Assembly: GCF_035084215.1 (NCBI RefSeq)
Contig: NC_090363.1
Coordinates: 5,208,001 to 5,272,000 of the forward strand
Origin: Heptranchias perlo
Lineage: Eukaryota
Direction: 5' to 3'
Length of the DNA: 64,000 nt
Shown here in pieces: positions 1 to 61,190 of the stretch. How positions within the stretch are numbered: the stretch's first letter is position 1; each line of letters starts with the position of its first letter. The translations under genes and the position numbers were made by a program. A model generated the notes under the pieces. That model worked only from the letters and a program-made list of their open reading frames with translations. It was not told the DNA's origin and ran no database searches.

Positions 1-112
1 AGATTTTAAATGGCGCCGCCGCCGCCGCCCCCTTCGGAGAATCGGTCACCGCGGCGTGGAGCGCGGACGAGCCGGAGGGAAAAGGTGCTGAACGTCGCGC
101 CGTCACAACCAA

Positions 113-802
113 ATGGGCTGGGGCGATCCGGCCGGAGACCCCTCCCGAGGCAAGAAGGCGAGGAAGAGGAGGAGCCCGCCCCGGGCGCGGCAGGCGGGCG
201 GGCGCGCCTCCGCCACCCTGGCCGGTCAGATCATGGAGGCGGTGGCGTCTTCCAAGGAGCGCCGCGGCCTGTCGCTGGTCGCCGTCAAGAAGGTGCTGTC
301 GGCCGCCGGCTTCGACGTGTCCAAGAACAACTCGCGGGTGAACCAGACGGTGAGGAGCCTGGTGACCAGCGGCTCGCTGCTGCAAACGGCGGGCACCGGG
401 GCCAACGGCTCCTTCAAAGTCAACCGGCGGCGGTACGTGAAGACCAAGAGCCGCCTGGCGGCCGGCAGGAGACGGGCCGCCTCCCGGGGCCGCTACCAGA
501 GGAAGGCGGCGGCCGCCAAGAGGAGCAGGAGGAAAAGGAGTCCCGCCAGGAAGAGCAAGCCGAGGATTCAGAGGAAGAACGGGAGAGCCGGCGGCGGTCC
601 TGGCCAGAGAAGGGTCAGGATCAAGGGTGGCGGTGGTGTCCGGAAGGCGGTGAGGAGGGGAGTCGGGCGGCCCAGGAGAGCGGCCAAGGAGCTGCCGCCA
701 GCGGACGGTCAACTCCGCAAGCAAGAAGCCCAGCAATACCCAAGTGATGAAACGGCCAAGGCGGATAACCGCGAGGGCGGAATCCGAGCGGAAACAATCT
801 GA
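113..802 (+). CDS. Arg-rich histone H1-derived / protamine-like (PL-type) protein, 229 aa
   Basis: Has the H1 winged helix ([66 protein letters not shown]) and an Arg-rich tail. Intronless, TTTAAAT near 5-11, histone stem-loop at 831-846. Confidence 0.9.
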   Translation: MGWGDPAGDPSRGKKARKRRSPPRARQAGGRASATLAGQIMEAVASSKERRGLSLVAVKKVLSAAGFDVSKNNSRVNQTVRSLVTSGSLLQTAGTGANGSFKVNRRRYVKTKSRLAAGRRRAASRGRYQRKAAAAKRSRRKRSPARKSKPRIQRKNGRAGGGPGQRRVRIKGGGGVRKAVRRGVGRPRRAAKELPPADGQLRKQEAQQYPSDETAKADNREGGIRAETI

Positions 803-6825: not shown

Positions 6826-7239
6826 ATGCCGACGGCTGTTTCGGCTGTTTCCACCAGTAGCACCACAGCCGGTGCCAAGAGCGCCGTTTCGAAGAAGGGC
6901 TCGAAGAAAACCGCTATGAAAATGACCAGGAAAGGCGACAAGAAACACAGGAGGAGCAGGAGGGAGAGTTACAGCATCTACATCTACAAAGTGCTGAAGC
7001 AGGTCCACCCGGACACGGGCATCTCCTCCAAGGCCATGAGTGTCATCAACTCCTTCGTCAGCGACATCTTCGAGCGCATCGCCTCCGAGGCTTCCCGCCT
7101 GGTCCATTACAGCAGGCGGCACACCATCTCCTCCAGGGAGATCCAGAGCGCCGTCCGCCTCCTGCTGCCGGGGGAACTGGCCAAACACGCCGTGTCGGAA
7201 GGGACGAAGGCCGTCACCAAGTACACCAGCTCCAAGTAG
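6826..7239 (+). CDS. H2B: Divergent histone H2B variant, 137 aa
   Basis: [25 protein letters not shown]...[25 protein letters not shown] at 6826, stem-loop GGCTCTTTTTAGAGCC at 7287-7302. Confidence 0.95.
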
Positions 7240-8745: not shown

Positions 8746-9405
8746 ATGACCGACACTCTGTCTGCCAAAAGCCCCAGGAAGAGGACCAAGGCTTCCCACT
8801 CCGCCAGAAGAACCGGCACCACCGTGTCCGAGCAGATCATGGAGGCGGTGGCGACCACCAAGGAGCGCCGCGGGCTCTCGCTGTCGGCTCTCAAGAAGAT
8901 CCTCTCGGGCGGCGGCTACGACGTGGCCCGAAACAACTGGCGGGTCAACCAGGCGGTCAGGAGCCTGGTGAGTAAAGGCTCACTGATGCAGACCGCGGGC
9001 ACGGGCGCCTCGGGTTCCTTCAAAGTCAGCAAGACCCAGAAGGACAAGGCGATCAGGACGGAGGAGAAGCCGAAGACGGAGTCCACCGGCACCAGGAGAA
9101 GGAGGAAAGGTTTGGCCAAGAGACCCGCCGCCGCCAAGAAGCCCAAAAAGCCCAAGAAGAGAGGGGCTCCCAAGAAGACCAAGAAACACGGCGCTTCCAG
9201 GAAGGTGGCGAGGGGGACTCGCAAGGAGAAAATCACCAAGGGGAGGAAGCCGGTGAGGAGTGGCCGAAAAGGGAAACACACAAAGCCGAGAAAGTTGGCC
9301 AAACACCCGGAGAAGGCGCAGGAGGCGGACAAGCCTCCCGCTCATGAAGAGACCTCCGTCTCTGAGAAAAAAAGTAAAGTTTGCTCGGAACACGACAGTG
9401 CCTAA
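8746..9405 (+). CDS. Histone H1-derived basic protein, 219 aa
   Basis: Winged helix [68 protein letters not shown], then a K/R tail. TTAAATA near 8666, stem-loop at 9446-9461. Confidence 0.92.
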
Positions 9406-12660: not shown

Positions 12661-12992
12661 ATTTGATGGCGAGGGGTATTTTTCATGCAGACGTGGAGAG
12701 GATGGATTTTTTTTTTTTGCCGGACGACGCAAATGTTGAGTGTTTTTTCTCTAATGCTGCAAGAGCTAGTAGTATTAATTCTGCAGGATGTGTCGAATCT
12801 CCAGAATTAATGTGAGGTGCAGGTTTCGAAATTGGGAATTAATCACTTTATAATTCAATGAGGCATTTTTTTTTGCAAAGAGGAGGAGGAGCCAGGAAAT
12901 GGGTCGTCTCTATTGCGTCCGTCTCGAGTCTTTAAGTAGAAATGCGGCTGCGGCTTTCGCATCATGTGATCATTTCGCATCAGCCGAAAACC

Positions 12993-13469
12993 ATGCCCAA
13001 GGTGCGCAGAGCCGCTCCCGGCGTCAGCCACGCCCCGCCGAAGAAGACTCGACAGCACCGACCCTACCGGCGCCAGAGGAAGAAAGAGCTGCGGATCTCC
13101 CAGCTCATCCTGCAGGCGCTGTCGGCCCGCAAGCAGCGCGGCGGCCTCTCGCTCGCCTCCCTCAGGAAGGCGCTGCTGGCCAACGGCTACGACGCGGAGA
13201 AGAACAAGGCCCGCGTCCAGCTGGCCGTCAAGAGCCTGGTGAGCAACGGCTCGCTGGTGCAGACCAAAGGTAAAGGCGCCACGGACTCCTTCATGCTCAG
13301 CAAGAGGCAGGAGCAACAGTCGAAGGAATCCGGGGCCGGGGTCAAGGCCAAGAAGGAAACCACCGCGAGCAACGACGAGGCCAAGAATGCCGTCAAGAAT
13401 CCGAAGAAAAGACGGGCTGAGAAGAAAGCAACTCCCAGTAAAGCTAAAGCGAGAAGACCTAGGAAGTAA
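12993..13469 (+). CDS. Short divergent histone H1-like protein, 158 aa
   Basis: [75 protein letters not shown] start at 12993, stem-loop at 13508-13523. Confidence 0.9.
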
Positions 13470-16733: not shown

Positions 16734-17537
16734 TTACCACCGCCTAAAACCAATGGTCCGCGGACGCCCCGCCGGCCGTTTTGATTTGGTGGCCGGAGGC
16801 CGCCCACGGTAGGTTTTGGCCCCCTTCCTGCCTCTCACGGGCTTGTATTTCCGATAGATCCGCACCGCCCTGCCCTTGGCGGCTTTGGGCTTGAGGCGGA
16901 TGCGCACGGTCCTAGGAGTGGCCCGCCGTGCGGCGAATTTCGGCTTGCGGCGGGTTTGCGCCGCTTTCCTGGGCTTCGCCACTTTGCGTTTGGACGTGTA
17001 TCTCCTCTTGGTCTGGGGCGATTTCCTGGAGGGCGCCGGGGTGAGTTTCCGGGTTGCAATTTTCTTCTTGGCGGTGTCTTTCTTTTCCCTTTCACGTTTG
17101 GGCGCCGCCGCCGCGGTGTCCGGGTGGGTCTTGGACCTGTTGAACCTGAAGGAGCCCGCGGCCCCGACGCCCGCGGTCTGCACCAGCGAGCCCTTCTTCA
17201 CCAGCTGCTTGACGGTCTGGTTGACGCGGGTGTTGTTGCGGGACACGTCGTAGCCCTTGGCCGACAGAGCCTTCTTGAGGGCGGCCAGCGAGATGCCGCG
17301 CCGCTCCTTGGTGGCCGCCGCCACCTGCAGGATCCGCTGGGTCACCGTGGGGCCCGTCTTCTTGCGGTTCCGGGGAGGCCGGTGCTGTTGCTGCTGCTGT
17401 TGTTGCTGCTGCTGCTGCTGTTGCTGTTTCTTCTTCTTGGCCGTCGCCGCTGCCTTGTCGGGCGCCGTTCGGGCCTGGGGCGGGGTGGCGCCGCCCGAAT
17501 CTCCGGCATCGTCTGCCTTTGGATCGCTATCCGCCAT
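16734..17537 (-). CDS. Long Arg/Lys-rich H1-derived (PL-like) protein with a poly-Q tract, 267 aa
   Basis: ACCATGG start at 17537. Winged helix TQRILQVAAATKERRGISLAALKKALSAKGYDVSRNNTRVNQTVKQLVKKGSLVQTAGVGAAGSFRFN. Q14 in the N-tail; stem-loop at 16664-16679. Confidence 0.92.
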   Translation of the reverse strand: MADSDPKADDAGDSGGATPPQARTAPDKAAATAKKKKQQQQQQQQQQQQQQHRPPRNRKKTGPTVTQRILQVAAATKERRGISLAALKKALSAKGYDVSRNNTRVNQTVKQLVKKGSLVQTAGVGAAGSFRFNRSKTHPDTAAAAPKREREKKDTAKKKIATRKLTPAPSRKSPQTKRRYTSKRKVAKPRKAAQTRRKPKFAARRATPRTVRIRLKPKAAKGRAVRIYRKYKPVRGRKGAKTYRGRPPATKSKRPAGRPRTIGFRRW

Positions 17538-21881: not shown

Positions 21882-22481
21882 ATGGCTGATACAGTTCCTG
21901 CGAAAGCAGATGTCCCCGCACCTCCCGTTCCCACCTTTCCACTTTCCGCCGCCCCAGCCCCGGCCGTGCCCCCGTTAGCCACCAAGAAGAAGGCCGCTTA
22001 TCGGCCGCAGAAAGGCGGTGCCGCGGTGGCCGAGCAGATCCTGGAGGCGGTGGCCGCCACCAAGGAGCGCCAGGCTGCCAAACTGGGCGCCGTGAAGAAA
22101 ACCATCTCGGCCCCCGGCTACGAGGTAGAGAAGAGCGGCGTTCGGCCCAACCAGTCGGCCAGCACCCTGGCCAACAAGGGCTCCCCGGTGGAGACCGGCG
22201 CCGGCCCGTCCTCGGCCTCCCTCAACCTCAATCAGGAGGAGGAAGAGGAGGAGGAGGTCGAGGACGGGACCAAAGGAGGCGCCAAGAGGAAACGACGAGC
22301 CAAGAAACCGGCTAAGAAGAGAGCGGCGGCCGAGGCTAAACTTGCTGCAAACAAACGCGCCAAGAGGTCGGCGCCCAAGAGCCCCCGGAAGGGGAGAGTG
22401 GCCAAGGCGAGAAAAACACCCACGCGCCCCGCAGCACCCGGGGCCCTGGGGCGTAAGCGTCGGGCCCCGAAGAGGAGGTAG
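21882..22481 (+). CDS. H1-derived protein with a degenerate globular domain and poly-Glu linker, 199 aa (copy 1)
   Basis: AEQILEAVAATKER..KKTISAPGYEVEK is recognisable. QEEEEEEEVED is followed by a K/R tail. H1 promoter upstream, stem-loop at 22517-22532, paralog at 53251-53859. Confidence 0.85.
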   Translation: MADTVPAKADVPAPPVPTFPLSAAPAPAVPPLATKKKAAYRPQKGGAAVAEQILEAVAATKERQAAKLGAVKKTISAPGYEVEKSGVRPNQSASTLANKGSPVETGAGPSSASLNLNQEEEEEEEVEDGTKGGAKRKRRAKKPAKKRAAAEAKLAANKRAKRSAPKSPRKGRVAKARKTPTRPAAPGALGRKRRAPKRR

Positions 22482-53250: not shown

Positions 53251-53859
53251 CTACCTCCTCTTCGGGGCCCGTCGCTTACGTCCCACGGCCTTGGATACTG
53301 CGGGACGTTTGGCCGCTTTCCCCTTCCGGGGGCTCTTGACCGCCGGCAACTTTTTGGCGGCTTTTCGCTTCTTGGCGGGTTTGTGGGCAAGTTTGGCTTC
53401 CGCCGCCGCTCTCTTCTGGGCCGGTTTCTTGGCTCGTCGTTTCCTCTTGGCGCCTCCTTTGGTCCAGTCCTCGACCTCCTCCTCCTCCTCCTCCTTCTCT
53501 TGGTTCAGAAGAACGGAGGCCGAGGACGGACCGGGGCCGGCGCCGGATTCCACCGGGGAGCCCTTGTTGGGCAGGGCACTGGCCGACTGGTTGGGCCGAA
53601 CGCCGCTCTTCTCCACCTCGTAGCCGGAGGCCGAGATGATCTTCTTCACGGCGCCCAGTTTGGCAGCCTGGCGCTCCTTGGTGGCGGCCACCGCCTCCAG
53701 GATCTGCTCGGCCACCGCGGTGGCGCCTTTCTGCGGCCGGTAAGCGGCCTTCTTCTTGGCGGCTCCCGGGGGCACGGCCGGGGCAGCGGCGACGACAGCG
53801 GCAGCATCGGGAGGAGTGGGTGCGGAGACATCGGCTTTCGCAGGGACGATATCGGCCAT
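53251..53859 (-). CDS. H1-derived protein with a degenerate globular domain and poly-Glu linker, 202 aa (copy 2)
   Basis: Paralog of 21882-22481, including the TATA/GC-box promoter and 3' UTR. ATG at 53859. Confidence 0.85.
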   Translation of the reverse strand: MADIVPAKADVSAPTPPDAAAVVAAAPAVPPGAAKKKAAYRPQKGATAVAEQILEAVAATKERQAAKLGAVKKIISASGYEVEKSGVRPNQSASALPNKGSPVESGAGPGPSSASVLLNQEKEEEEEEVEDWTKGGAKRKRRAKKPAQKRAAAEAKLAHKPAKKRKAAKKLPAVKSPRKGKAAKRPAVSKAVGRKRRAPKRR

Positions 53860-54024
53860 TGAGCAAAGTCCAAGCTCATGGACGTCGCGCAAAGATGTGG
53901 CGGAGCCGCGGCGGCGACATTTTATATAAGGGCGAAAGGCGGACGAGGTAGAGTCAAGCTCCCGCTAGGCCACGCCCCCAGCCCTGGGTTATTTATTCTC
54001 TGTCTGTCTTCATTTCCAACAACG

Positions 54025-60578: not shown

Positions 60579-60705
60579 CAATCCATTGTTGCTCTGGTTT
60601 GGAGGAGAGGGAACCTGGCGGACTTCACCCTGCACCGTCCACCTTGCGCCTTTAAATAGCGTTCCCCGGCGGCAATCTCGCCCACTTCCCCGGCGCTTGC
60701 GGGGG

Positions 60706-61140
60706 ATGAACGTGCGGGGGAAGGTTGTCCGGACGGCCAATACTGTCCATGGGAAAGGTGCCAGGGACACGTCGGCCGGGTCGGATCAGCCCCCGGCCCG
60801 CCCGCCCGCGGCAAGCGGCATCCAGCCGCTGTCCGCAAGGCGCGCTCGGCCGGCGGCTACGACGCGGACAAGAACAGCGCCCGCGTCCGGCAGGCGCTCA
60901 ACCACATGGCCCCCAGCGGGCGGTGGCGTCGCCGTCTCGGCCCCGCGCCCTTCCGTCGCCCCCAACAGCCGGAGCGAGGCGGAGGCGGCGGTGGGGGACC
61001 AGGAGATGTCGACCCGCAGTCCGAGAGCGAAGGCCCGGAAGCCGAGTAAAAAGACCCGGAGAAAAAAAACTAGTGAGGCAGAAGAGAAGGGCGTCAGGCG
61101 TCCTGTCAAAACCAAGAGAAAATCGCCCAGGAAGAGATAA
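60706..61140 (+). CDS. H1-derived 144-aa basic ORF whose globular domain is out of frame (frameshifted gene or pseudogene)
   Basis: TTTAAATA at 60651, ATG at 60706, K/R tail ending KSPRKR*, perfect stem-loop at 61175-61190. An alternative frame from 60825 reads AAVRKARSAGGYDADKNSARVRQAL. Confidence 0.6.
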   Translation: MNVRGKVVRTANTVHGKGARDTSAGSDQPPARPPAASGIQPLSARRARPAATTRTRTAPASGRRSTTWPPAGGGVAVSAPRPSVAPNSRSEAEAAVGDQEMSTRSPRAKARKPSKKTRRKKTSEAEEKGVRRPVKTKRKSPRKR

Positions 61141-61174
61141 AATAAAAACAAATCCTGAAGAAACAAAATTCAAT

Positions 61175-61190
61175 GGCTCTTTTCAGAGCC
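61175..61190 (+). terminator. Histone 3' stem-loop
   Basis: GGCTCTTTTCAGAGCC. Confidence 0.93.

Follow-up and report, generated by a model that had tools for sequence, protein, structure and literature searches.

A probably recently disabled H1 gene with an open basic reading frame in a shark histone cluster

An H1-like gene in a histone cluster of the shark Heptranchias perlo has lost its start codon and carries helices 2 and 3 of the globular domain off frame, and it keeps its tail in frame together with the promoter core and the 3' stem-loop. We consider it probable, at roughly 0.6, that this focal gene is a recently disabled, single-copy divergent H1 variant. The start codon of an H1 gene would have changed to ACG, deletions would have thrown the globular domain off frame, and the reading frame between an upstream ATG and the old stop likely stayed open by chance and not by selection. 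Positions are those of the window, the whole 64,000-nucleotide stretch of DNA that was analysed (C42:5208001-5272000 of a 3.25-Gb genome); all features of the focal gene lie on its plus strand. The 404 kb scanned piecewise (C42:4968001-5372000) contain, besides the focal gene, 15 intact H1-like genes and 15 core-histone genes, of which two core-histone genes are broken. The comparison set of intact paralogs comprised 13 of the 15 H1-like genes; the duplicates of 113 and 8746 were omitted.

Start, promoter and tail of the focal gene

The open reading frame starting at ATG 60706 (60706..61140) comprises 144 codons and ends with a stop at 61138-61140, 34 bases 5' of a perfect histone stem-loop at 61175-61190. 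This reproduces the first-pass annotation, which had described a frame from ATG 60706 with an SPRK tail and a stop just before the stem-loop. The product, which had been called rich in Arg, Ala, Pro and Thr, contains 16.0% Arg, 9.0% Lys, 15.3% Ala, 11.1% Pro and 9.0% Thr, and its SPRK motif is at residue 140. A Pfam scan of all three frames of the gene returned no family, PF00538 included, in agreement with the absence of a winged helix noted earlier; the PF00538 cut-off was passed by four of the six other H1-like genes of the window. The globular domain that characterizes linker histone H1 is thus absent from the product according to Pfam; a single-sequence structure model, uninformative by itself, had no secondary structure (pLDDT 57, pTM 0.10). 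A basic C-terminal tail with an S/TPKK-type motif is present (20 Lys plus Arg in the best 40 residues, SPRK), and so are the hallmarks of a replication-dependent histone gene, i.e., a 3' stem-loop, an intronless layout and a place within a histone cluster. Two other starts were considered and rejected, for neither matched the layout of the gene: the 165-aa frame of ATG 60749 reads across the stem-loop, and the H1-frame product of ATG 60906 would be a 47-aa peptide.

The promoter core, made of a CGTCCA motif and the TATA-like TTTAAATA, was located at 60636..60658. In 12 of 13 intact paralogs a CGTCC(G/A) motif immediately precedes the TATA-like box; the focal gene has its CGTCCA form in common with one intact paralog, and this form was therefore dismissed as a sign of promoter decay. 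When the opening 25 bases of each paralog were compared with the focal gene, those of 21882, of 53859 and of the copy of the latter (L004) matched best at 60733 (18/25, 19/25 and 19/25, respectively), with 0/300 shuffles reaching the score in each case; those of the remaining 10 paralogs gave no comparable match. The ancestral start codon position, 60733..60735, now reads ACG, and the in-frame ATG at 60706..60708, 27 bases 5' of it, thus belongs to the former 5' UTR and is not the ancestral start. In the start-region alignment this ATG faces an ACG in the UTR of the H1 gene at 53859, and it probably arose by a CpG transition. An ATG is present in the UTR of only two of 12 paralogs, out of frame in both. 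The gene at 53859 has an out-of-frame ATG at 53879 (minus strand), 20 bases 5' of its start, which recurs in its copy L004; catshark relatives of this gene have predicted in-frame upstream starts.

At the other end of the gene, the stem-loop (61175..61190) scored 35.9 bits with the Rfam model RF00032, for which the cut-off is 34 bits. Its stem is perfect and its flanks are atypical, AAT before and AT after: all 12 paralogs with a pattern-matched stem-loop have AAA or AAC before it and AC after it, so the focal gene departs at both flanks. The stop-to-stem-loop spacing of 34 bases compares with 35 in the sister 21882/53859 family. An acidic stretch followed by the K/R tail (60976..61137) is in the ancestral frame and colinear with that family, with 12/43 and 10/43 residues identical.

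Remnant of the globular domain and the frameshifts

The helix-1 region at 60790..60824 is damaged: 35 bases, with GCCC repeats, stand in place of the 48 found in paralogs. The first frameshift, one shift or two, lies somewhere in this segment. It is followed at 60825..60918 by an H1 helix 2/helix 3 remnant, which the open reading frame reads in the +1 frame. Read in the H1 frame, the remnant shares 12-16 of 32 residues with nine ungapped paralogs and has a GC3 of 31/32; the block AAVRK..MAPSG begins at 60825, and the H1 frame closes with a stop at 61047. A Leu to Arg change has occurred in the remnant at a position that is hydrophobic in 8/8 paralogs. In a tblastn comparison with the 710-base region, the H1 genes of the window matched with E values of 2e-7 to 2e-9 (three paralogs among the matches listed), and a genome-wide DNA search matched the focal gene to the H1 gene at 12942 (83% over 65 bases, E 1.6e-7). 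A frameshift-tolerant profile alignment scored 95.7, compared with 50 ± 7 (maximum 67) for 40 local shuffles.

The zone of the frame-restoring shift, as delimited by single-paralog and profile alignments, is 60897..60993, with 60918 as the best estimate. Alignments to 11 single paralogs placed the shifts variously, and those with one shift back put the return at 60897-60993; all four family-profile settings that permit shifts put it at 60918, two of them adding at least one shift 5' of 60825. By these alignments the focal gene carries at least two shifts, perhaps three. The open reading frame keeps to the ancestral frame as far as about 60789, passes the damaged helix 1, takes helices 2 and 3 in the +1 frame, and then continues in the ancestral frame. 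The earlier view that compensating frameshifts skip the globular domain and leave a basic frame open is therefore borne out. Helix 2/3 and wing remnants had both been placed in another frame that begins at about 60825 and later stops; the helices and the stop stand, but GPAPFR (60939) may not be a wing remnant, since the return to frame is placed at 60897-60993 by single paralogs and at 60918 by the profile.

The parentage of the gene appears to be mixed, the start and the tail pointing to the 21882/53859 family and the helix 2/3 DNA to the H1 gene at 12942. A tree built on 96 bases, with one gapped paralog omitted, gave the latter kinship a support of 63, with weak support overall. On the same weakly supported tree the branch leading to the focal gene is long (0.44 per site), which sits less easily with a very recent loss. 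No recent duplicate that could serve as the parent gene was found in the genome search (two matches) or in the 404 kb of the cluster.

Function or chance

It is possible, if unlikely, that the gene has been remade and is functional, its product being a 144-aa disordered basic chromatin protein, likely of the male germ line, that would bind DNA through the K/R tail and the new Arg/Ala/Pro/Thr segment and would do so with no winged helix. What speaks for this is the frame itself, uninterrupted between the new in-frame ATG and the ancestral stop, together with the retained promoter core and stem-loop. To judge such openness, we simulated frameshifting indels in the 13 intact paralogs (two or three random indels at least 90 bases apart, 0-5% substitution, 19,500 trials per setting); with an assumed mix of indel lengths, and the start switch outside the model, 2.3-25.8% of trials ended with the frame restored and free of internal stops. 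The inverse of this simulated openness gives a factor of roughly 4-40 by which the open frame speaks for function; an outcome that chance yields in 2-26% of cases also weakens the argument for function. The +1 frame, open in the focal gene, is stop-free in only one of 13 paralogs, a point in favour of function; each codon that opens it occurs in some paralog, so the open +1 frame is explicable without selection.

Substitutions within the 96-base block gave no excess of silent changes in either frame, which stands against a functional new frame. The comparison used eight paralogs of the set of 13, near-duplicates and a gapped gene being omitted; the block has five private changes, among them the Leu to Arg change noted above, and intact genes scored alike have 5-17. 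Silent changes made up two of five in the H1 frame and two of four scorable ones in the new frame, about 25% and 32% being expected. Codon-position tests could not tell the models apart, as the differences between pairs of intact paralogs are likewise spread evenly over the three codon positions. The H1-frame codon signature (GC3 31/32), taken with the presence of only five private changes, indicates that the shift is recent. The CpG observed/expected ratio of the focal gene, 1.08, exceeds that of all 13 intact paralogs (0.79-1.00) and is the highest of the set, in keeping with a functional gene. The ratio fell from 0.77 to 0.60 in an H2A pseudogene of the cluster and is 0.47 in a dispersed H1 copy on C4, while an interrupted H4 pseudogene, at 0.79, has undergone no fall. 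Of the earlier proposal of a decaying pseudogene, the old, methylated form is opposed by the lack of CpG loss and by the kept promoter core and stop spacing, and a recently disabled gene is favoured.

The first-pass annotation had further suggested a frameshift-born protamine-like protein of the kind proposed in tunicates. In the available text of PMC13148410, protamine-like (PL) proteins of spermatid and sperm chromatin combine a winged helix with a stretch of 30-50 Arg/Lys-rich residues, and protamines are very Arg-rich proteins of 50-110 aa. The focal product has no winged-helix head by Pfam, and at 144 aa and 16% Arg it is neither short nor very Arg-rich. Its Arg content falls within the 7.3-17.9% of the 13 intact paralogs, and its net charge per residue of 0.19 (27/144) within their range of 0.14-0.30. 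The 40-residue segment richest in basic residues is the ancestral tail, with 20 Lys plus Arg and 9 Arg against 16-23 and 7-14 in the 13 intact neighbours; the shifted block contains 7 Arg in 31 residues, compared with 4 Arg and 2 Lys in 32 in the H1 frame. A protamine was thus not produced by the frameshift, since Arg lies within the neighbours' range and the basic tail is ancestral. This, the lack of any relative of the shifted frame in the searches below, and the fact that chance leaves a frame open not so rarely make the suggestion of a protamine-like, frameshift-born protein an unsupported one, possible but unlikely. The lack of Arg gain over the neighbours is also a point against a functional remade gene.

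Relatives of the product were sought in several collections, in searches whose sensitivity was limited by low complexity. Among proteins of near lengths, the 144-aa product had no match in 375 candidates or in 1.84 billion representatives, and the H1-frame stretch had none at E≤1 in 377 candidates; an Atlas search with the 144-aa sequence returned only one unrelated match, at 0.76. The exact protein is absent from a collection of 15 billion that includes four of six neighbouring H1 genes tested. A four-sequence profile retrieved, among the best 8000 candidates scored, eight proteins, all of the 21882/53859 family and none with the focal layout. The absence of a homolog among the searched proteins argues against a functional remade gene, as does the destruction of helix 1, the most conserved motif of the sister family. 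On its other side are the conservation of that family, whose globular domain is degenerate, in at least five other cartilaginous-fish proteins (six matches, five named species), by which weak-cored H1-like proteins are seen to endure in this lineage, and the existence of compensating pairs 99 bases apart in RAB36, as given in the available text of PMC8935012. The stretch is in no sequencing run recorded as RNA, and three runs guessed as RNA share 0.00 of the focal gene's words, which has no bearing on expression either way.

Lesions of the kind that mark a pseudogene are present in the ancestral frame, the start being lost and the globular domain off frame. On the side of recent disabling we count these, the truncated helix 1 and the shifts, at least two in number, as well as the chance openness, the two atypical stem-loop flanks, the pseudogenes with perfect stem-loops and the missing homolog; on the opposite side we count the CpG ratio, the open +1 frame, the in-frame new ATG, the kept promoter core and 34-base spacing, and one silent variant described below. 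Taken as a whole, the evidence is compatible with both a recently disabled gene and a working remade one and does not decide between them. Recent disabling was weighed above function because validated compensating pairs are rare and because two of 15 core-histone genes in the cluster are broken, both of which keep perfect stem-loops. A recently disabled gene would have worked as a short H1 variant through most of its history, the shifts coming late. The upstream ATG may have taken over from the old start when the gene was still functional, in which case its being in frame would be a coincidence that needs no later function. The gene may still be transcribed, giving a disordered basic peptide with no selected role. 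We doubt the stronger proposition that the start switch and the compensating frameshifts made a working, domain-free basic chromatin protein, an intermediate between H1 and sperm basic proteins that would have been reached, within a cluster of 15 H1-like genes in rapid divergence, by erasing the winged helix and not by recoding the tail.

The reading path was checked, as had been asked, in four DNA runs. In each (4/4), one 852-base contig spans 60500-61327 with 0 gaps and 0-1 mismatches, the path being identical in all; all four runs come from one sample, possibly the source of the assembly, and the contigs drop rare variants. The frame-disrupting indels that restore the frame, making two or three shifts, are therefore present in the contigs as well. 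The single variant site seen, 60741 T/C, occurs in one run and is silent in the 144-aa frame. Since only one sample is represented and rare variants are dropped, and since the H1 frame is little decayed, the frameshifted sequence could be a segregating null allele, i.e., a frameshifted haplotype or recent variant with an intact H1 allele in other individuals. This is improbable, for several independent lesions (the start, at least two shifts and Leu to Arg) would have to lie on one haplotype, and the four contig sets share the gapless path despite their SNP difference. Assembly or sequencing indels, an alternative raised earlier and suggested by the 68% GC content and short repeats of the region and by the possible origin of the assembly from the same runs, are highly improbable, as the contigs are gapless in 4/4 runs and as a 13-base deficit and a substituted start codon are among the lesions. 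Of the readings considered, an assembly error and an old, methylated pseudogene are excluded by the evidence.

If the focal gene is a young pseudogene, it exemplifies ordinary gene turnover in histone clusters and warns against taking an open frame and an intact stem-loop as proof of function. Should it prove to be both expressed and conserved, it would rank among the rare examples in vertebrates of compensating frameshifts replacing a whole folded domain, and the H1-to-protamine hypothesis would become testable in sharks.

The surrounding cluster and known systems

The 15 intact H1-like genes of the cluster (C42:5010000-5278000) are strongly divergent and fall into six sequence types. In the window they occupy 113-802, 8746-9405, 12942-13469, 16734-17537, 21882-22481 and 53251-53859, and others lie in L017, L083, L084, L063 and L088. 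The tblastn scan of the cluster did not show the focal gene itself, so other worn relics could be missed. Several of the H1-like genes are Arg-rich (up to 17.9% Arg) or contain poly-Gln tracts, whereas the H1 copies in the rest of the genome, where more than 150 further H1 matches were found, are Lys-rich. Proteins at least 90% identical to neighbouring genes are named 'histone H1-like [Heptranchias perlo]' by their sources. The cluster genes are candidates for germ-line H1 or protamine-like variants, and this group of 15 may be a better lead than the focal gene. Our literature searches found no description of a divergent, partly Arg-rich H1-like cluster, and a term search of the main text of a catshark sperm proteome (PMC11083954) found no mention of histones or protamines.

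The sister family, represented by 21882-22481 (plus strand), 53251-53859 (minus strand), L004, L006 and P0007-P0013, has a conserved helix 1 and an acidic stretch before the basic tail. Its helix 2/3/wing region is degenerate, with a Pfam score of 15.7 bits, below the cut-off, or no match. Members are present in Heterodontus, Pristiophorus, Scyliorhinus and Rhinoraja, where they are named 'histone H1-like' or uncharacterised. A model built from eight sequences, run with no positive control and of little information, showed helix 1 only (pLDDT 52). The family is possibly a conserved elasmobranch H1 derivative with no working winged helix. L007 (C4:133674122-133674448) is a dispersed, decayed copy of it, with 23 CpG transitions in 351 aligned bases.

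Other histone genes of the cluster are also unusual. Divergent H2B variants (6826-7239 of the window, plus strand; L085; L088) have unusual N-terminal tails and substitutions in the fold, and the H2A genes share an unusual C-terminal end. An H2A pseudogene (L084:4336-4599, C42:5052336-5052599) has deletions of 1 and 47 bases that, summing to 48, restore the frame; a stop lies in the segment between the two, and the stem-loop is perfect. The H4 gene at 1743-2807 of the window (plus strand) is broken after codon 13 by about 760 bases of repeat, which we take to be reverse-transcriptase-like; two stops lie in the 3' remnant of the gene, whose stem-loop is perfect. A 245-247-codon alternative frame at 10-747 (plus strand), which overlaps the H1 gene at 113 and is open both there and in a copy in L088, is probably untranslated, because its ATG sits inside the TATA-like box.

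Among known systems, the focal gene resembles replication-dependent H1 genes (PF00538, RF00032) in being intronless and clustered, in its TATA-like box, stem-loop and SPRK K/R tail, and in its helix 2/3 DNA. It differs from them in that its product has no globular domain by Pfam in any frame and in that the start codon has moved. With the elasmobranch H1-like family (21882, 53859; P0007-P0013) it aligns in the start region, promoter, acidic stretch, tail and stop spacing. That family keeps helix 1 in frame and has helices 2 and 3 eroded by substitution, whereas the focal gene has lost helix 1 and keeps, off frame, a more H1-like helix 2/3 that is closest to the H1 gene at 12942.

The analogy with the tunicate route from H1 to protamine is a loose one. 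Lewis et al., in 2004, reportedly described there a frameshift in the tail that turned Lys runs into Arg runs and left the winged helix in place. An H1 origin of tunicate sperm basic proteins is cited in the available text of PMC9917458 and PMC11607694; PMC13148410, too, cites Lewis et al. The focal gene would share with PL proteins and this route the H1 origin, a basic disordered tail and, if the tunicate shift is as reported, the involvement of a frameshift. PL proteins keep the winged helix, according to the available text of PMC13148410, and the focal gene has lost it; its Arg gain is small and lies in the core. With the tail untouched and the core scrambled, its geometry appears to be the opposite one.

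Compensating frameshift pairs offer a further comparison. Validated pairs were found in five of 21,208 vertebrate genes, and the genes that have them are typically young and less well conserved (Biba, Klink and Bazykin 2022, PMC8935012, available text). As in those cases, two nearby frame-disrupting indels restore the frame in the focal gene, over a span near that in RAB36 (99 bases). The trusted cases given in the same text are found in several species or are backed by transcripts, whereas the focal case comes from one sample, with its only folded domain removed and its start lost.
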